Positions 23,660 through 33,870 of a stretch of DNA of 64,000 bases are shown here, piece by piece. The notes beneath the pieces were generated by a model. That model saw only the letters and a list, made by a program, of their open reading frames with translations. It ran no database searches and had not been told where the DNA came from. Position 1 is the stretch's first letter; every line of letters starts with the position of its first letter. Source of the DNA: Candidatus Porisulfidus sp. TsSOB (GTDB lineage: Bacteria > Pseudomonadota > Gammaproteobacteria > Poriferisulfidales > Poriferisulfidaceae); contig MRSX01000002.1 of assembly GCA_002631715.1 (NCBI GenBank), positions 152,478-216,477 on the forward strand, written 5' to 3'. Both the position numbers and the translations under genes were made by a program.

Positions 23660-24691
23660 GTGTCGTCGTTCGCCAGCCGGATCATCCGCTACCAGCGCGA
23701 ACACGGCCGACACGACCTGCCGTGGCAACGCCGACGCACGTTGTATCGCGTATGGGTCTCCGAAATCATGCTGCAGCAGACCCAAGTGGCGACCGTGGTC
23801 CCTTACTTCCGGCAGTTCATGCGACAGTTCCCGAATGTCAAACAACTGGCTGAGGCCCCTTTGGACTCCGTGCTGGCGTGCTGGTCCGGACTGGGCTACT
23901 ACGCCCGGGCACGCCATCTGCATCAGGCTGCACAAGTCATCCGCGGCTCGGGGGGACGTCTGCCGCGAACCATCGAAGACTGGATGCAGTTGCCGGGTAT
24001 CGGCCGCAGCACGGCTGGCGCTATCGTCTCACTCGCCCTGAACCAGCCGGCTCCCATGCTCGATGGCAATGCGCGACGCGTTATTGCCCGACATCAGGGC
24101 CTGCCCACGACTCCTCGTGTTGCCCTGTGGCGCGCTGTCGAGCAATTACTACCGAACCAGGATGCCGCCGCCTACACTCAAGGCCTGATGGATCTAGGGT
24201 CGCAATGCTGTACGCCGCGCGCACCCGACTGCACGCATTGCCCGTTAAGCAAGGACTGTCACTACGCCAACCACGAACCGGATGAGCAACCCAGCCGGAA
24301 GCGGTCACCACTGCCGCGTCGTGATTTCTGGGTGGCTATCGTGCAGTCCGAAGACGGGCAGGTTCTGCTGCAGCAAAGGCCGACGAACAGCATCTGGGGC
24401 GGGCTCTGGAGCCTACCGGAATACCCGGACCGGAGTGCGGCGCAGCGCTGGGCCCGGAACTGCGGGGAAAAACTGGAGTGGCAGGAAGACCCTCCCCTGA
24501 CCCATCGCCTGAGCCACTTGGAACTTTGCCTTCACCCCCTGCGAATCCGGATCCGGAATTCGGATCGCGAAAGTTTCCAGAAAAGCGGGCGCTGGTTCGA
24601 CCCAGAGCAATTGACCGTCGGTGTGGCAACCCCGATCATGAAACTGATACGGCGCGAAACTGTATCTCGAACCTTATCGGTTCAAGGCTGA
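23660..24691 (+). CDS. mutY: A/G-specific adenine DNA glycosylase
   Basis: GTG at 23660 gives a MutY-like N-terminus (IIRYQREHGRHDLPWQ...). It has the HhH-GPD motif, a 4Fe-4S cluster loop (CTPRAPDCTHCPLSKDC) and a C-terminal NUDIX-like domain. Confidence 0.9.
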   Translation: MSSFASRIIRYQREHGRHDLPWQRRRTLYRVWVSEIMLQQTQVATVVPYFRQFMRQFPNVKQLAEAPLDSVLACWSGLGYYARARHLHQAAQVIRGSGGRLPRTIEDWMQLPGIGRSTAGAIVSLALNQPAPMLDGNARRVIARHQGLPTTPRVALWRAVEQLLPNQDAAAYTQGLMDLGSQCCTPRAPDCTHCPLSKDCHYANHEPDEQPSRKRSPLPRRDFWVAIVQSEDGQVLLQQRPTNSIWGGLWSLPEYPDRSAAQRWARNCGEKLEWQEDPPLTHRLSHLELCLHPLRIRIRNSDRESFQKSGRWFDPEQLTVGVATPIMKLIRRETVSRTLSVQG

Positions 24692-24739
24692 CTATAATCT
24701 TATGGGCCCAGTAATCGACCCCAGCAAGAGAAATGCAAC

Positions 24740-25627
24740 ATGAAAGCGATGACTTGGCCCGGCACCCCTGTCTTTAGCGCCCTGACCCTGACGGCAATCC
24801 TCGCCTATTCTCCGGCCCCCGTCTTTGCGGCGCAGGAAGGAATCTACCTCGGGGTTTCTGCCGCGGCGGAAGAGCTGGACGTGTCGGTTTTCAAAACCAT
24901 CGACAACACGCCCGACGGAAACATGACCTTGTCCCAGGGCAAGATCTTCACGGACCGGGACTCCGACACCAAGACAGCAAGCGGATTCGGAATCGTGCTC
25001 GGGTACCAATGCCCTCTCCACTACGGAAGCCTGTACTGGAGCGGCGAAATCAACTTGGCCTATCACAGCGGGAAAGCGCGAGGCAGGATGGAAGGAACCG
25101 AGGATGTTGCAGCGCGGAAAACCCACAACGACGCGACCGACCCAGACCTCCCGGCTTTTTCGGTCGGCCCGCAAACCGGCGAGAACTGGCCGGAACGCTG
25201 GACCTTCGAGAAAGACTACAGCTATGGCGTGACGCTCAGGCTGGGCGGGCGGCCGGAATTCCTGACCTCCGCGCTCGGCCCGGACGCCGGACTCTATGTT
25301 CTGGCTGGCGTGCGCCGAGTCGAGGCCGAGTACGTGAACACCGGAACCGGTTGTTTCGAAACTCCCCCGACGCTCTGTACAAGCGATGAGGATTTCAGCC
25401 CCAGCGTCGTCCGGACCGACCGGGACTACACTGCTTGGACCCTGGGAATAGGAGTGCATGCGGCGATTGCGGAGCAAGTCGGCCTGCAAATCGAAACCTA
25501 CTACATGGATTACGATTCGGAATCTCTGGTTCAGCTCGACGGGACAGAAGACCTGCGGGTGCGCGCCATGCATGAACCGGACGCCGAGGAAATCGGCCTG
25601 AGAATGAGATTGCTGCGGTATTTTTAA
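24740..25627 (+). CDS. outer-membrane beta-barrel protein (paralogue 1 of a tandem pair)
   Basis: Signal peptide, amphipathic beta-strand periodicity, C-terminal LRMRLLRYF ending in aromatic Phe. It has a Cys pair in a predicted loop. Confidence 0.6.
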   Translation: MKAMTWPGTPVFSALTLTAILAYSPAPVFAAQEGIYLGVSAAAEELDVSVFKTIDNTPDGNMTLSQGKIFTDRDSDTKTASGFGIVLGYQCPLHYGSLYWSGEINLAYHSGKARGRMEGTEDVAARKTHNDATDPDLPAFSVGPQTGENWPERWTFEKDYSYGVTLRLGGRPEFLTSALGPDAGLYVLAGVRRVEAEYVNTGTGCFETPPTLCTSDEDFSPSVVRTDRDYTAWTLGIGVHAAIAEQVGLQIETYYMDYDSESLVQLDGTEDLRVRAMHEPDAEEIGLRMRLLRYF

Positions 25628-25637
25628 TCTTAGCCAG

Positions 25638-26498
25638 ATGAAGCTGTTCAAACGTTCGGGGGATTTTTCCGTTTTGGCCTGCGTAGTGGCGCTGGCCGGT
25701 GCGCCTGGTTTTTCTTCCGCCATGGAAGAAGGGTTCTACATGGGGCTTTCCGCCTCTGCAGAGAATCTGGACGTCACCCCCTCCCGAATCACGGACAACA
25801 CGCATTCCATGAACGCGACCACTTCCCGTGGCCGGACTTTTTCCACCCGGGATTCCGATACCCAGACAACCAGCGGATTCGGTATCCTGGCCGGCTACAC
25901 CTTCTGCCCAAGCAATCGGGAACTGTATTTGAGCGCTGAAATCGACTTGGCCTATCACGGTGGCAAGGCGCGGGGAAGACTAGCGTGGATCAAGGATTCC
26001 GTGCTCCGGGCAGGCGCAAACAACGTACCCGACTGGCCGCAATCCGGCGAAGGCTGGCCGGACGACTGGACGTTTGAGCAAAACCGCAGCTACGGCCTGA
26101 CCCTCAGACTGGGCGGGCAACCGGATTTCCTGATCTCCATGCTTGGGCCGGACTCCGGGCTTTACGTTTTGGCCGGCGTCCGTCGCATTGAGGCGGAGTA
26201 CTCTCTTTCCTTCGAGGGCTGCCCCGAGGACGACGGCTGTCCCGACGGGAGAGAAGACGAGTCTTATGCCCAAGGGTCCGACCGGACCGACACGGACTAT
26301 ACCGCCTGGACTGCGGGGCTCGGGCTACACACCCCGGTCGGGGACCGGCTCGGGATGCAGGTCGAAATGTACTACACCAACTATGAGGAAGAGAACCTGT
26401 TGCTTCTGGACGACAAGGGTCCGCCTCACATTCGAGTCGTGCATTCGCCGGATGCTGATGGAATCGGTTTGCGATTGCGGCTGCTGCGATATTTCTGA
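25638..26498 (+). CDS. outer-membrane beta-barrel protein (paralogue 2 of a tandem pair)
   Basis: Collinear with the upstream gene (GFGI(V/L)LGY, SGEINLAYHSGKARGR versus SAEIDLAYHGGKARGR, GLYVLAGVRR(V/I)EAEY, identical LRLRLLRYF end). Confidence 0.6.
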   Translation: MKLFKRSGDFSVLACVVALAGAPGFSSAMEEGFYMGLSASAENLDVTPSRITDNTHSMNATTSRGRTFSTRDSDTQTTSGFGILAGYTFCPSNRELYLSAEIDLAYHGGKARGRLAWIKDSVLRAGANNVPDWPQSGEGWPDDWTFEQNRSYGLTLRLGGQPDFLISMLGPDSGLYVLAGVRRIEAEYSLSFEGCPEDDGCPDGREDESYAQGSDRTDTDYTAWTAGLGLHTPVGDRLGMQVEMYYTNYEEENLLLLDDKGPPHIRVVHSPDADGIGLRLRLLRYF

Positions 26499-26521
26499 CT
26501 TACCGAGACGTTTCACAGAAC

Positions 26522-27292
26522 GTGCCCTTCTCGGCGTTCCGAGGTCCTCTTCTGCGGCAGTGCAGGACTTCCCTCTGCATTATTCTTGCCGCCAGCTTAC
26601 ACACCCCGACCGTCTCGGCCGAAACCTGGCGCGGCCTGGTCGTCGAGCCGGAAGATCGTTGCTCGCCCTACCGGAGCAACGACTATTCCTATCCACAGTC
26701 GGTCGAACCTAAAATCGTCACCGAACTCGGAAAAATCTACAGCCCTTACACCGGGCAGTGTTTCGGCAGCATTCGACAAACCGACATCGAACATATCGTG
26801 GCTCGTTCCGAAGCGCATGACAGCGGGCTGTGCCGCGCAGACATTGCCACCCGAAAAAGATTCAGTTCCGATCTTCTTAATCTGACGCTGGCAAGCCCCA
26901 CGCTCAATCGACAACAGAAACGCGCCTACGATGCGGCTGAATGGATGCCCGAAATCAATCGCTGCTGGTTCGCCAATCGCGTGCTTCAAGTGCGCCTCAA
27001 GTACGGGCTGAGCATCGATCGGCGCGAGGCTGAAGCCCTGGAGCGGACCCTTTCCGCTTGCACGACGGTCGGAATCGAGAAATCGGACTGCGTTGCCGTG
27101 TCCGACCTCCCGGCTTCCCGTCCCGCAGCCTCTTCAGAGGACGCGGAGGCCCTGCGCCTTTGGGACGACAACCGGAACGGAAGAATTACCTGCCGCGAGG
27201 CGCGCTGCCACGGAATTGCGCCCGTGCCGCGTGGGCATCCCGCCTATCCGTTCATGCACGATGGTGACGGCGACGGCGTGGTCTGTGAATAA
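26522..27292 (+). CDS. secreted protein with DUF1524/GmrSD-C-like HNH (His-Me finger) nuclease motif and C-terminal Excalibur Ca-binding domain
   Basis: Signal peptide. TDIEHIVARSEAHDSG resembles the DUF1524 catalytic motif. The C-terminal WDDNRNGRITCREARCHG...HDGDGDGVVCE matches the Excalibur DxDxDG...CE signature. It is Cys-rich. Confidence 0.6.
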   Translation: MPFSAFRGPLLRQCRTSLCIILAASLHTPTVSAETWRGLVVEPEDRCSPYRSNDYSYPQSVEPKIVTELGKIYSPYTGQCFGSIRQTDIEHIVARSEAHDSGLCRADIATRKRFSSDLLNLTLASPTLNRQQKRAYDAAEWMPEINRCWFANRVLQVRLKYGLSIDRREAEALERTLSACTTVGIEKSDCVAVSDLPASRPAASSEDAEALRLWDDNRNGRITCREARCHGIAPVPRGHPAYPFMHDGDGDGVVCE

Positions 27293-27313
27293 CGAACTGA
27301 GGGCGGGGCGGGA

Positions 27314-27589
27314 TCAGCGGTAAAACTCCACGTAGAAACGAACCTTACCGAGCGCCTTGACTTCGTGTGCAATCTCCGGTTCTACAATCCCGGGTGTCTG
27401 CGGTGAAAGTTCCTCGTCCCAGGCCTCGGGCTCCAGGATACGGTAACGCAACCGGCCTTCCAAGACGACGATTTTCCCCCAGATCCCCGCACTGGTTCGG
27501 TGCTCTTTCTTGAGGTTCTTCGGTATCGAGTCTTCTGTAAATTCGGGGGACTGAGCGAAACTTGAAACTTCTGCAGGCAGGGTTTTCAT
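27314..27589 (-). CDS. DUF1971 (YeaR/TehB-C-terminal-like) domain protein
   Basis: SPEFTEDSIPKNLKKEHRTSAGIWGKIVVLEGRLRY resembles E. coli YeaR TPFWNKQTAPAGIFERHLDKGTRPGVYPRLSVMHGAVKY. Confidence 0.5.
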   Translation of the reverse strand: MKTLPAEVSSFAQSPEFTEDSIPKNLKKEHRTSAGIWGKIVVLEGRLRYRILEPEAWDEELSPQTPGIVEPEIAHEVKALGKVRFYVEFYR

Positions 27590-28091: not shown

Positions 28092-28109
28092 TTGTAATCA
28101 AACTGAAAC
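28092..28109 (+). promoter_or_regulatory. putative Pho box upstream of pstC
   Basis: TTGTAAT-caaa-CTGAAAC: two 7-nt CTGTCAT-like repeats separated by 4 nt, about 45 nt upstream of pstC. Confidence 0.3.
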
Positions 28110-28155: not shown

Positions 28156-29535
28156 GTGTCCCCACTCTTTCTAATCTTCTTACTGCTGGCATTGTCGTCG
28201 GCAGCTTATTTCTTCAGCCAGCGCCGCATGCTGCGGCAGGTCCGGAACGCCAACGTCGCGCGTCTTAGTTCCCTTCCCGAACACTTTGGAATGCTGGGCG
28301 CCATCTGGGCCGGCGCACCTGCCCTGCTGGTGTACTTCGTATGGTTGATTTTCGAGGGTGACATCCTCATGGCCCAAGTGCTGGCGATATTGCCGGATCC
28401 CGAATCCATGGCGGCAACTCGCGAGCTGTTGATCGGCGACATCCGCAACGCCATCAATAACCCCATGAGCTACCAGATGGCCAACGAAGAGGTCCGCATG
28501 GCGGCGGACCGCTACCAGGAACTGTCTCAAACCGCCACGCTCGCGCTGACCGCCACCTGCTTGTCAGTATTCGCCATCTGTTCCGCACTGGTCTTGAAAT
28601 TCCTGACTCCCCAAGTTCGAGCCCGGGTCCGAGTCGAGAAGATCATCCGCGGATTCCTGCTGCTGTGCTCGACGCTGGCCATCTTCACCACCGTCGGCAT
28701 CGTGCTTTCGGTCCTGTTCGAGGCCAGCCGGTTCTTCCAAACCGTCTCGGTGATCGAATTCCTGTTCGGTCTCGAATGGAGCCCTCAGATGGCCATCCGC
28801 GAGGACCAGGTCGGCTCCAGCGGCGCCTTCGGCGCCGTGCCGCTGTTCGCCGGCACCCTGCTCATTTCGTTTATTGCGATGCTGGTAGCCGCACCAATCG
28901 GCCTGATGTCAGCGATCTACCTGTCTGAATACGCGCCAGCCAAGATCCGTGCCGCGGTCAAGCCGATGCTGGAAATTCTGGCTGGCGTGCCGACCGTAGT
29001 GTACGGCTTCTTCGCCGCTATCACGGTTGGCCCTGCCCTGCGCGGGTTCGGGCAGTCCATCGGCTTGGATGTCGCTTCCGAAAGCGCCTTGGCGGCTGGC
29101 TTCGTAATGGGAGTGATGATCATTCCTTTCGTCTCATCCATTTCCGACGACGTAATCACGGCCGTGCCGCAGGCAATGCGCGACGGCTCGCTCGGAATGG
29201 GGGCCACCAATTCCGAGACCATGCGCCGGGTCATTCTTCCCGCCGCTCTCCCCGGCATCATCGGCGGCCTCCTGCTGGCCATCTCGCGCGCCATCGGTGA
29301 AACTATGATCGTCGTGATGGCGGCCGGCCTGTCCGCCAACCTGACGGCCAACCCGCTGGAGGCTGTAACCACGGTCACCGTGCAGATCGTTACCTTGCTG
29401 GTCGGCGACCAGGAATTCGACAGTCCCAAGACGTTGGCTGCATTCGCCCTGGGCCTGACTCTGTTCTTCGTCACCCTGGTGCTTAACTTCATTGCCCTGT
29501 ATGTGGTGCGCAAATACCGGGAACAATACGAATGA
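28156..29535 (+). CDS. pstC: phosphate ABC transporter permease PstC (long form)
   Basis: ABC permease with the EAA loop; 459 aa, like the long Pseudomonas-type PstC. Its stop overlaps the pstA start. Confidence 0.85.
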   Translation: MSPLFLIFLLLALSSAAYFFSQRRMLRQVRNANVARLSSLPEHFGMLGAIWAGAPALLVYFVWLIFEGDILMAQVLAILPDPESMAATRELLIGDIRNAINNPMSYQMANEEVRMAADRYQELSQTATLALTATCLSVFAICSALVLKFLTPQVRARVRVEKIIRGFLLLCSTLAIFTTVGIVLSVLFEASRFFQTVSVIEFLFGLEWSPQMAIREDQVGSSGAFGAVPLFAGTLLISFIAMLVAAPIGLMSAIYLSEYAPAKIRAAVKPMLEILAGVPTVVYGFFAAITVGPALRGFGQSIGLDVASESALAAGFVMGVMIIPFVSSISDDVITAVPQAMRDGSLGMGATNSETMRRVILPAALPGIIGGLLLAISRAIGETMIVVMAAGLSANLTANPLEAVTTVTVQIVTLLVGDQEFDSPKTLAAFALGLTLFFVTLVLNFIALYVVRKYREQYE

Positions 29536-30806
29536 ACCCCACCAAGCAGATTGTTTCCGGGTTGGCCCGGCGGCAGCGGGCCGAGAAGCGGTTCCGGCTC
29601 TACGGCCTTACCGCTGTCGTCCTCGGCATGGCCTTCTTGCTGCTGCTGTTCGGCAGCATCGTTGCCAACGGCTATAAGGCATTCACCCAGACCTATATCG
29701 AACTGCCCATTTACTTCGATCCCGCAGTGATTGATCCAAGTAGCGAACGCGATCACCAAACCCTGTTTTCGGCCGACTACTGGAAGCTGGTCAAAACCGC
29801 CGTGTACCAGAAGTTTCCCCAAGCCAGCGGGCGGAAGGAACGCCGCGAGCTGACCCGGATGGTCAGTGAAGGATCTGCATATGAACTGCGCGATCAGGTT
29901 CTGGAGAATCCCCGACTGATCGGAACCACGCAACACATCTGGCTGGCGGCTGACGATGATATCGACATGCTGATGAAAGGTTACATCGACCGGAATGTGC
30001 CGGAAGACGAACGGCGCCTGAACGACCGAATCATCGGCTATGTGGACAGCATGCGCGAGGTCGACGCCATTGAGCGGCGATTCAATACCACGTTCTTTGC
30101 CGCCGGGGATTCCCGGGAACCGGAACAGGCCGGCATTCTCGGCGCGTTGATGGGATCCTTCCTCACCTTGATCGTCACCTTGCTGCTATCGTTCCCGATC
30201 GGCGTGGCCGCCGCAGTCTACCTGGAAGAATTCGCGCCCCGAAATCGCTTTATCGATCTGATCGAGATCAACATCAACAACCTGGCCGCTGTCCCCTCGA
30301 TCATCTTCGGCCTGCTTGGGCTCGCCATTTTTATCAACTGGTTCGGGATGCCTCGCTCCACACCTGTCGTTGGCGGACTGGTTCTGGGGCTGATGACACT
30401 GCCGACCATCATCATTGCCTCACGTGTCTCCATCCAATCAGTCCCCCCTTCCATCAAGGAAGCCGCACTTGGCGTCGGCGCCTCGCGCATGCAGGCGATG
30501 TTCCACCACGTACTGCCCATCGCCACGCCCGGCATGTTGACTGGAACCATCATCGGTATGGCGCGGGCACTTGGCGAGACGGCCCCGTTGCTGATGATCG
30601 GCATGGTGGCTTTCATTGTCGATCCCCCCGGGGGGTTCACGGAACCGGCCACCGCCCTACCCGTGCAGATCTTCCTGTGGTCGGACAGTCCAGAGCGAGG
30701 TTTTACCGAGCGCACCTCCGCTGCAATCCTGGTGCTGCTTGTGTTCCTGATCGCCATGAACGCCGCCGCCGTCTATCTGCGCGAGAGAGTCACCAAGCGG
30801 TTCTGA
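29532..30806 (+). CDS. pstA: phosphate ABC transporter permease PstA (long form)
   Basis: The C-terminal permease core matches PstA ([11 protein letters not shown]...[13 protein letters not shown]). Confidence 0.85.
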
Positions 30807-30840
30807 GGAACCCGATTCATCACCGCCACCCACTATAATC

Positions 30841-31707
30841 ATGGACATTACTGAAACCTTGGCCATTCCGATTCCGGAGCAACTCGACTCCCCTGCCGTA
30901 CCCGATCAAGCGGATCTTGATCTGACCACGGTCGGGGACTTTACCGTCCCAGACCCGCGGATGAAAATTCGCGATGTCAACGTGTTCTATGGCCAAAAAC
31001 AGGCTATCTTTGACGTCAACCTCGACATTGGGTCGAATTCCGTCGTGGCCATGATCGGTCCGTCCGGCTGCGGAAAAACCACCTTGCTGCGCTGCCTCAA
31101 CCGGATGAACGACACGATCGACGGCTGCCGGGTCGAAGGTCGGGTCGAGATGGACGACAAGAACGTCTACGACCGCAAGATGGACCCGGTCCTGCTGCGC
31201 GCCCGGGTTGGCATGGTTTTCCAGAAACCCAACCCGTTCCCGAAATCGATCTTCGACAATGTCGCCTACGGCCCCCGCATCCATGGGCTGGTGCGCGATC
31301 GCACCGACCTGGAGGAAATCGTTCACACTTCGCTGGAGCGGGCGGGCTTGCTCGACGAGGTCAAGGACCGGATGGACCAGCCCGGCACCGGACTGTCCGG
31401 CGGCCAGCAACAGCGCCTGTGCATCGCGCGCGCCATCGCGGTCAGCCCCGAGGTGATCCTGATGGATGAGCCATGCTCGGCACTGGATCCGATCGCCACC
31501 GCGCGGATTGAGGAACTGATCGGCGAATTGCGCAAGAATTTCTCCATCGTCATCGTCACTCATTCCATGCAGCAGGCCGCGCGCGTCTCCCAGCGCACCG
31601 CCTATTTCCATCTGGGCTATCTGGTCGAGGTGGGGTCCACCAAGGACATCTTCACGACGCCGAAGCACCAGTTGACCGAAGAGTACATCACGGGCCGTTT
31701 CGGCTGA
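30841..31707 (+). CDS. pstB: phosphate import ATP-binding protein PstB
   Basis: Walker [24 protein letters not shown] signature, Walker B ILMDEP. Confidence 0.9.
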
Positions 31708-33761: not shown

Positions 33762-33870
33762 GCTTACGCTAGTCTGCTTTGCAAATGTTACACCATTCTG
33801 ACAACCGCCACCGGCATCGTGCTTATAATGAACTCCAAGTAATTCGGCGTTTTGCATCCGCAACGGGGGT

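Follow-up and report, generated by a model that had tools for sequence, protein, structure and literature searches.

An exported DUF1524-Excalibur protein near the pst and pho genes of Candidatus Porisulfidus: a predicted accessory nuclease, probably outside the Pho regulon

His-Me finger proteins that combine a DUF1524 domain with a C-terminal Excalibur domain belong to group 3 of Jablonska et al. (2017, NAR; PMC5714182), where they are listed as "putative extracellular nucleases", and the group is known from bioinformatic prediction alone. Here we analyse one such protein, encoded at 26522-27292 on the forward (+) strand of a 64,000-nucleotide stretch of Candidatus Porisulfidus sp. TsSOB DNA (GenBank assembly GCA_002631715.1, contig MRSX01000002.1, positions 152,478 to 216,477), hereafter the window. 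The source genome is very close to metagenome-assembled genomes (MAGs) named Candidatus Porisulfidus, which are gammaproteobacterial sponge symbionts of 1.5-2.0 Mb (PMC12988363). The window protein has the architecture of the described group, i.e., PF07510 and PF05901 in that order behind an N-terminal hydrophobic or signal segment, and is an ordinary member of an already named, predicted family; its close homologs carry the GenBank name "excalibur calcium-binding domain-containing protein". The repeat unit formed by an EF-hand-like loop and the Excalibur domain, the invariant and co-varying cysteines and the carriage on plasmids and islands that are described below are not stated in the literature found. 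We consider it probable that the protein is a nuclease working outside the cytoplasm, where it degrades free DNA in the periplasm or surroundings, and that its gene is an accessory, mobile gene and not part of the Pho regulon, despite its position near pstCAB and phoBR.

Several better known systems share parts of this design. GmrSD, BrxU and SspE-type proteins belong to the same Pfam family and have the same (D/E)-H ... N ... N motif with a nine-residue spacing. Those proteins act in the cytoplasm and owe their modification dependence to an N-terminal DUF262 NTPase/sensor domain, whereas the window protein lacks DUF262, matches no PADLOC model and has an export signal, disulfide-type cysteines and calcium-binding modules. 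Endonuclease I enzymes (EndA, Vvn, Dns) work alike: these small, non-specific His-Me finger nucleases are exported by Sec, stabilised by disulfides and active in the periplasm or medium, and Vvn (1ouo) is the second-best Foldseek match to the window nuclease (probability 0.93, template modelling (TM) score 0.46, 143 aligned columns). However, the window protein has no Pfam Endonuclease_1 match and is only 15% identical in the structural alignment, and Endonuclease I has neither an Excalibur nor an EF-hand module. The window nuclease most resembles Endonuclease I in its working and the DUF1524 clade in its ancestry. Its C-terminal 34 residues, with a DxDxDGxxCE motif and a Cys pair, align with the pneumococcal choline-binding protein CbpL (5j8t, E=0.015), a Gram-positive surface protein without a nuclease domain; here, unlike in CbpL, an EF-hand-like loop precedes the Excalibur domain, and the unit is doubled in many alphaproteobacterial homologs. 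Pho-regulated nucleases (Vibrio cholerae Xds and Dns, Pseudomonas aeruginosa EddB, Corynebacterium glutamicum NucH) share export and the presumed substrate, extracellular DNA, but the Pho box that marks them was not found at the window nuclease, and we take them to belong to different protein families. The BmdE DNase of Cutibacterium granulosum was considered as a characterised relative and set aside because its description mentions none of these domains.

The nuclease coding sequence (26522..27292, + strand), delimited from the open reading frame (ORF) list, Pfam and homologs, is complete and encodes 256 amino acids plus a stop from a GTG start. The gene call is sound because the same 256-residue product is called in the public assembly of a 98%-identical genome, an ATG occupies the start-codon position in 6 related genomes, and pairwise ratios of non-synonymous to synonymous divergence (dN/dS) against 8 relatives are 0.13-0.24. 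These ratios show that the gene is under purifying selection and, together with the >5000 homologs returned by a word-seeded search, that the ORF is not a chance occurrence. Homologs span 48-98% identity to the window protein; conservation is reported below for an alignment of 39 homologs with 53-95% identity (A1). Pfam assigns residues 83-173 to GmrSD_C (PF07510, formerly DUF1524; 32.0 bits, cut-off 23, E=1.3e-7) and residues 223-256 to Excalibur (PF05901; 35.6 bits, cut-off 22), and the mature protein of 223 residues consists of the nuclease and calcium-binding modules only. An initial annotation, made from the sequence and its ORFs, had reported the reading frame and its motifs at 26522-27292, and all were found where it placed them: its DUF1524/GmrSD-C-like motif is TDIEHIVARSEAHDSG (residues 87-102), and its Excalibur signature DGDGDGVVCE covers residues 247-256, both inside matches that exceed the Pfam cut-offs. 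Assignment of the N-terminal part to an unrelated family by Pfam had been named as a possible refutation; the search returned GmrSD_C instead.

The nuclease domain (26621..27076, + strand; residues 34-185) comprises a GmrSD_C/DUF1524 His-Me finger core and an N-terminal extension. Its first beta strand and helix lie in TDIEHIVARSEAHDSG (26780..26827, +), with E90 as the predicted metal ligand and H91 as the predicted general base, and the second strand and helix lie in NLTLASPTLN (26879..26908, +), with N120 as the predicted structural Asn and N129 as the predicted metal-binding Asn of an H-N-N motif. E90, H91, N120 and N129 are invariant, as are E97, H99 and D100 in the first segment and L121, T122, L123 and P126 in the second. 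The corresponding active-site residues are D113, H114, N169 and N178 in GmrD and E79, H80 and N127 in Vvn, and the spacing of nine residues between the two Asn residues equals that of N169/N178 in GmrD and N68/N77 in the Gme HNH (PMC4619093). An AlphaFold2 model of the domain alone has a predicted local distance difference test score (pLDDT) of 92.3 and a predicted TM score of 0.89; it places a strand at 88-91 that ends at H91, N120 directly before a strand at 121-124, and N129 in a helix at 126-133. Foldseek comparison of this model with the PDB returned His-Me finger nucleases as 15 of the 16 top matches, all weak, including Cas9 HNH domains, Vvn, a Geobacter HNH nickase (4h9d) and PtuB. Templates of the same kinds were obtained for GmrD by Machnicka et al. 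The modelled fold is consistent with a His-Me finger and is not taken as proven because the Foldseek matches are weak and a domain-only sequence profile matches no solved structure in the PDB; a single-sequence search of the PDB matched through the Excalibur domain only.

Features of the N-terminus point to export. A signal peptide is predicted at 26522..26620 (+ strand; residues 1-33), with the signal peptidase I cut after VSA33. It consists of MPFSAFRGPLLRQCR, the hydrophobic stretch SLCIILAASL and TPTVSA/ETW (cut at the slash); the n-region is positively charged, and the best 10-residue Kyte-Doolittle mean in the hydrophobic core is 2.49. When homologs were tested for a hydrophobic core and, immediately ahead of the mature end, small residues at -3 and -1, 35 of 39 passed although their signal sequences diverge, and the mature end ETWRG is nearly invariant. 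Two homologs have a lipoprotein-like LIAC/G site farther upstream. The signal region has low pLDDT in the AlphaFold2 model, as expected of a signal peptide. The features of the signal peptide of the initial annotation are thus conserved in most aligned homologs, and the protein is probably exported by Sec and cut after A33. In diderm hosts it would reach at least the periplasm. The envelope type of Chloroflexota is unsettled; in hosts from this phylum the nuclease may be directly extracellular.

The cysteines suggest a protein that folds outside the cytoplasm. The initial annotation spoke of many Cys residues, and the count is 11, with 9 in the mature part and 6 of them invariant (C47, C104, C148, C180, C224 and C255). 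C80 and C190 occur together in 26 homologs and are both missing in 13, with no mixed case (Fisher p=1.2e-10, uncorrected for phylogeny). Invariant and co-occurring cysteines of this kind argue for a disulfide pattern, and therefore for folding outside the cytoplasm, with three putative invariant disulfides and one optional C80-C190 bond.

The C-terminal module would bind Ca2+. An EF-hand-like loop of 12 residues, DDNRNGRITCRE (27164..27199, + strand; residues 215-226), fits the canonical D-x-N-x-N-G-x-I-x-x-x-E pattern, and D215, I222, C224 and E226 are invariant. Pfam EF-hand matches to the loop are weak; with a family profile, EF-hand pairs of calmodulin are reached at E about 3e-5, and calmodulin swamps the full-length profile search of the PDB. 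The Excalibur domain follows at 27188..27289 (+ strand; residues 223-256), with DGDGDGVVCE at 27260-27289 and the invariant C224 and C255, and forms one unit of about 50 residues with the loop. This unit is tandemly duplicated in many alphaproteobacterial homologs and triplicated, with extra EF-hand matches, in two Latescibacterota-type proteins (A1; P0038-P0048, P0061, P0070, P0076, P0088, P0090, P0094, P0118); such tandem copies indicate that loop and Excalibur domain together are a self-contained module. The predicted calcium sites are in this module and not in the active site. The initial annotation had proposed an exported, Ca-dependent nuclease; an exported, Cys-rich His-Me finger protein with a calcium-binding tail remains the prediction, but calcium-dependent catalysis does not follow from sites that are predicted to lie outside the active site.

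The gene order is asmA, mutY, OMP1, OMP2, nuclease, DUF1971 (- strand), yggX, pstC, pstA, pstB, phoR (-) and phoB (-), where OMP1 (24740-25627, +) and OMP2 (25638-26498, +) are paralogous beta-barrel outer-membrane protein (OMP) genes that both match Pfam OMP_b-brl. OMP1 and OMP2 are separated by 10 nt, and the nuclease start lies 23 nt after the OMP2 stop, so the nuclease has no promoter region of its own. The initial annotation reported no Pho box in a short upstream region; the absence holds, but that region is merely the 23 nt that follow OMP2. The sole sizeable gap on the strand is that of 48 nt between mutY and OMP1. It contains a candidate -10 element, TATAAT (24693..24698, +), 42 nt before the OMP1 ATG, and the window shares CTATAAT with five related loci (L001, L002, L003, L005 and L007), in two of which (L003 and L007) the DNA upstream is fully different. 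Spacing and conservation suggest that OMP1, OMP2 and the nuclease form one transcript with a sigma-70-type promoter. Across Porisulfidus genomes there are two OMP copies, one, a remnant or none, with the nuclease always directly downstream, and only some of these genomes have the DUF1971 gene. Comparison of L001-L009, L012 and L020 delimits the variable cassette as 24740-27589, between mutY and yggX, two genes that are commonly adjacent in Gammaproteobacteria. Synonymous divergence (dS) of OMP1, OMP2 and the nuclease from the closest genomes (L002, L005 and L007) is 0.47-1.17, compared with 0.2-0.3 for the flanking asmA, mutY and phoR; pstCAB is in the same lower range in L002 and L005. The cassette is 2-4 times as divergent as its flanks, which implies that its history is deeper than that of its surroundings and suggests allelic replacement of a surface-protein cassette by recombination.

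The favoured model begins with a transcript that covers both upstream OMP genes and the nuclease; its promoter would be of the sigma-70 type, with a consensus -10 element but without a Pho box. The nuclease precursor would be exported by Sec and cleaved after VSA33; the three invariant disulfides and, where present, the C80-C190 bond would form in the oxidising periplasm or exterior, and the EF-hand-like loop and Excalibur domain would load Ca2+. By homology to GmrD and Vvn, the His-Me finger core would cut nucleic acid with H91 as the general base, E90 and N129 holding the metal and N120 bracing the beta-beta-alpha fold. The likely task would be non-specific degradation of free DNA, which would supply nucleotides and hinder foreign DNA from entering. 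Since disulfides and Ca2+ would become available on export and not before, the enzyme should do no harm during its synthesis, and therefore no inhibitor or immunity gene would be needed. Either role, salvage of nutrients or exclusion of foreign DNA, is plausible, and the mobile contexts lean slightly toward the latter.

Several observations weigh against this interpretation. Searches of the open literature found no biochemical or genetic study of any family member, the GmrSD_C match is only 9 bits over the Pfam cut-off, and NCBIfam has no model that matches the protein. Structural matches are weak as well: the best Foldseek E value for the domain-only model is 0.03, with none at or below 0.001 and a best TM score of 0.46, the full-length model gave only weak Foldseek matches, and the PDB profile search with the domain was negative, as described above. 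A Sec signal by itself would lead only as far as the periplasm in a Gram-negative cell, with release to the medium as a further step, and no secretion system was found within the 64-kb window. Codon 229 (27206-27208) encodes Cys in only 1 of the 39 aligned sequences, the window protein; the other 38, a 95% identical homolog among them, lack it and in the great majority have Arg there. C229 leaves the mature window protein with an odd number of cysteines. Co-transcription and the promoter are likewise predictions from spacing and conservation.

The family is widespread and partly mobile. An exhaustive search with the nuclease domain gave 4261 cluster representatives at E<=0.001, of which 491 remain at E<=1e-30. 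The 80 closest relatives in species-representative genomes (48-93% identity, nearly all MAGs) belong to Porisulfidus, Arenicellales, many Alphaproteobacteria, Binatia, Dehalococcoidia and other Chloroflexota, Latescibacterota, Bryobacterales, Vicinamibacteria and Ca. Amphirhobacter; judging from their bin names, these MAGs presumably come from sponge-microbiome sets. The neighbour-joining tree is star-like with mostly coherent lineages and monophyletic Porisulfidus copies, a pattern compatible with horizontal spread long ago and vertical descent since. Matches occur in 184 plasmid records: large plasmids of Vibrio, Alteromonas and Pseudoalteromonas carry full-length copies with 52-55% identity; homologs in Streptomyces, Rhodococcus and Mycobacterium are more distant. 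The copies in Vibrio, Alteromonas and Pseudoalteromonas, which are free-living or animal-associated, rule out a sponge-specific gene. Two of six chromosomal homologs are in mobile islands (L087 and L090; P0056 and P0117). One of these contexts holds transposases, a phage-type integrase, a PhdYeFM/PIN pair, DUF4238 and an Eco57I-type methylase; in the other, the homolog overlaps the end of a DUF7146/Toprim gene by 4 nt, with SSB and a 1500-aa helicase close by, an arrangement that resembles a conjugative element. The plasmid homologs of Vibrio nigripulchritudo (L082), Alteromonas mediterranea (L083) and V. parahaemolyticus (L084) are on 170-300 kb replicons, with DNA methylases, an SNF2-related protein, a PAPS-reductase-family protein and runs of hypothetical genes as neighbours. 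Another cultured carrier, Pseudoalteromonas pernae YIC-656 (L079), has a homolog with 51% identity.

Such contexts raise the possibility that the main role is defensive or competitive, i.e., that the protein is an exported barrier nuclease, often mobile-borne, that destroys incoming or competing DNA such as transforming DNA or plasmids of rivals before it enters the cytoplasm; this would be of particular use in sponge tissue, where foreign DNA abounds. The catalytic domain is that of type IV restriction enzymes (PMC5714182), the neighbours listed above include DNA methylases, SNF2, integrase, toxin-antitoxin, Eco57I and Toprim/SSB/helicase genes, and sponge-symbiont MAGs from many phyla contain close homologs. 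DUF1524 has also been reported as enriched in sponge metagenomes, where it was read as restriction-modification (PMC7848895), and the elevated dS of the Porisulfidus cassette is as expected under exchange by recombination. However, the reported enrichment concerns the DUF1524 domain and not the DUF1524-Excalibur architecture, the neighbourhoods are plainly metabolic in 4 of the 6 chromosomal contexts (window included), and neither a PADLOC match nor a conserved defence partner was found. ORF clustering within +/-5 kb detected no neighbour family conserved across the 80 loci beyond lineage synteny; an apparent neighbour cluster at 18 loci proved to be the antisense ORF of the nuclease in GC-rich genomes. 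A non-specific exported nuclease would also serve nutrition equally well, and the two roles are compatible. A mainly defensive role is therefore a tentative alternative that we regard as rather unlikely. It is more doubtful still that the exported DUF1524-Excalibur enzyme forms an outer, mobile layer that defends against nucleic acids or clears DNA and is shared horizontally by marine plasmids and sponge symbionts from many phyla. Close homologs in host-associated MAG sets from Gammaproteobacteria, Alphaproteobacteria, Chloroflexota, Binatia, Latescibacterota, Acidobacteriota and other groups, the plasmid and island copies and the recombining Porisulfidus cassette are compatible with such a layer, but comparably close homologs also occur in free-living marine bacteria. 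If such a layer exists, part of the DUF1524 enrichment in sponge metagenomes would be due to an extracytoplasmic nuclease that acts on foreign DNA in the sponge tissue, and not to restriction-modification.

Control by PhoB was the proposal of the initial annotation: the nuclease would belong to the PhoB regulon, be induced by starvation for inorganic phosphate and free phosphate from extracellular DNA for uptake by PstCAB. Its starting point was a distance of about 1 kb to the pst genes. The nuclease is indeed 864 nt upstream of pstC, and about 4.4 kb from phoR and phoB, but the convergent DUF1971 gene and yggX separate it from pstC. Pho-controlled extracellular nucleases exist elsewhere, e.g., Dns and Xds of Vibrio cholerae (PMC4714964), and an exported nuclease would release phosphate esters under any regulation. 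Recognisable Pho boxes occur at pstC (28092-28109, + strand; YTGTAAYCAAACTGAMAY, then ATAATG 11 nt later) and at phoB (33787-33804, - strand; CTGTCAGAATGRTGTAAC). With their downstream -10 elements they read TTGTAATCAAACTGAAAC ... ATAATG for pstC and TTGTCAGAATGGTGTAAC for phoB, and together they define a Pho-box pattern that can be used for this species. In 9 Porisulfidus-type genomes, the spacer upstream of pstC has diverged except for the box, its sole conserved island. A relaxed pattern built from both boxes matches just these two sites in the 64-kb window and eleven 20-kb Porisulfidus loci, and the organism-specific pattern with 2 mismatches allowed has no match in 24400-26600. The Escherichia coli Pho-box consensus with up to 3 mismatches gives 2 matches compared with 3.6 expected, neither of them near the locus. 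Pho boxes are thus kept at pstC and phoB, whereas the cassette keeps only TATAAT, and the DNA 10-30 nt upstream of it, where a Pho box would be positioned, is unconserved.

Gene linkage gives the same picture. The nuclease is linked to pst and pho genes in L001-L008, which are collinear with the window throughout; in the distant Porisulfidus loci L009, L012 and L020 it follows mutY, with no pst gene within 10 kb, and pst linkage is absent from 69 loci of other taxa, where apparent PstB and PhoR matches are generic ATP-binding cassette (ABC) ATPases and histidine kinases (25-35% identity). No pst/pho operon or phosphatase adjoins the nuclease in three plasmid and six Pfam-labelled contexts; the one pho-type label, a phosphate ABC substrate-binding protein, belongs to a 135-aa ORF about 5 kb away on an Alteromonas plasmid. 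The linkage is not kept beyond collinear Porisulfidus genomes, and no phosphatase or nucleotidase was found near the nuclease. Membership of the Pho regulon, as initially proposed, is therefore improbable given the absence of a Pho box in 24400-26600 and of linkage outside collinear relatives, and direct PhoB control through a non-canonical site has an equally small chance. Because boxes and linkage are both negative, proximity to pst is best seen as a chance outcome of gene order in a compact genome; a position close to pstCAB-phoBR in a symbiont genome of 1.6 Mb is no evidence of co-regulation.

A secreted antibacterial toxin, i.e., a bacteriocin-like DNase directed at competitors, is very unlikely: His-Me finger DNases are common as toxin modules (PMC5714182) and the protein is predicted to be exported, but the 80 loci and six contexts contain no adjacent immunity gene and no conserved neighbour, and Pfam detects no translocation, receptor-binding or secretion-targeting domain. 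Least probable of all is an intracellular component of GmrSD-type (type IV) restriction with an N-terminal hydrophobic segment that is no signal peptide, for which the Pfam family name, the catalytic motif common to GmrSD and BrxU and one homolog about 3 kb from a full-length GmrSD gene could be cited, since PF03235 (GmrSD_N/DUF262) is absent from the protein and its neighbours are OMP and DUF1971 genes, PADLOC models do not match, the features of a cleavable signal are conserved, the cysteines fit disulfides, bonds that few cytoplasmic proteins contain, and Excalibur is an extracellular calcium-binding domain. The homolog in question (L086, P0046) is in a 7.4-Mb genome that carries a gene with full-length GmrSD_N plus GmrSD_C about 3 kb from the exported DUF1524-Excalibur gene, and the pair indicates that intracellular and exported uses of the domain coexist in one organism.

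The exported DNA-degrading enzyme favoured here would represent a restriction-enzyme catalytic domain reused outside the cell; if its activity is confirmed, it would join Endonuclease I and the NucA/Serratia and SNase types as a further class of exported nuclease. The family comprises about 500 diverged representatives with a conserved active site, for which searches found neither a solved structure nor an assay. Its function is testable because cultured carriers exist in Vibrio, Alteromonas and Pseudoalteromonas, although the window organism is not culturable.

Some further observations concern the neighbouring genes and a distant relative. OMP1 and OMP2 encode proteins of about 290 aa each with the typical ending ...LRLLRYF and match no NCBIfam model, and OMP2 is 52-73% identical in close relatives whose flanks are 97% identical. 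Within 28156-31707, pstC (with DUF3708) and pstA (with DUF3333) are long forms; at this locus, pstS is absent before pstC and phoU is absent after pstB, which abuts the convergent phoR. The region 25116-25673 of Gordonia phage Finkle (ON456347.1), labelled as two "membrane protein" genes, is 33% identical to the window protein over 86% of its mature length; these are the only phage records that match, and they may represent a phage-borne exported relative.

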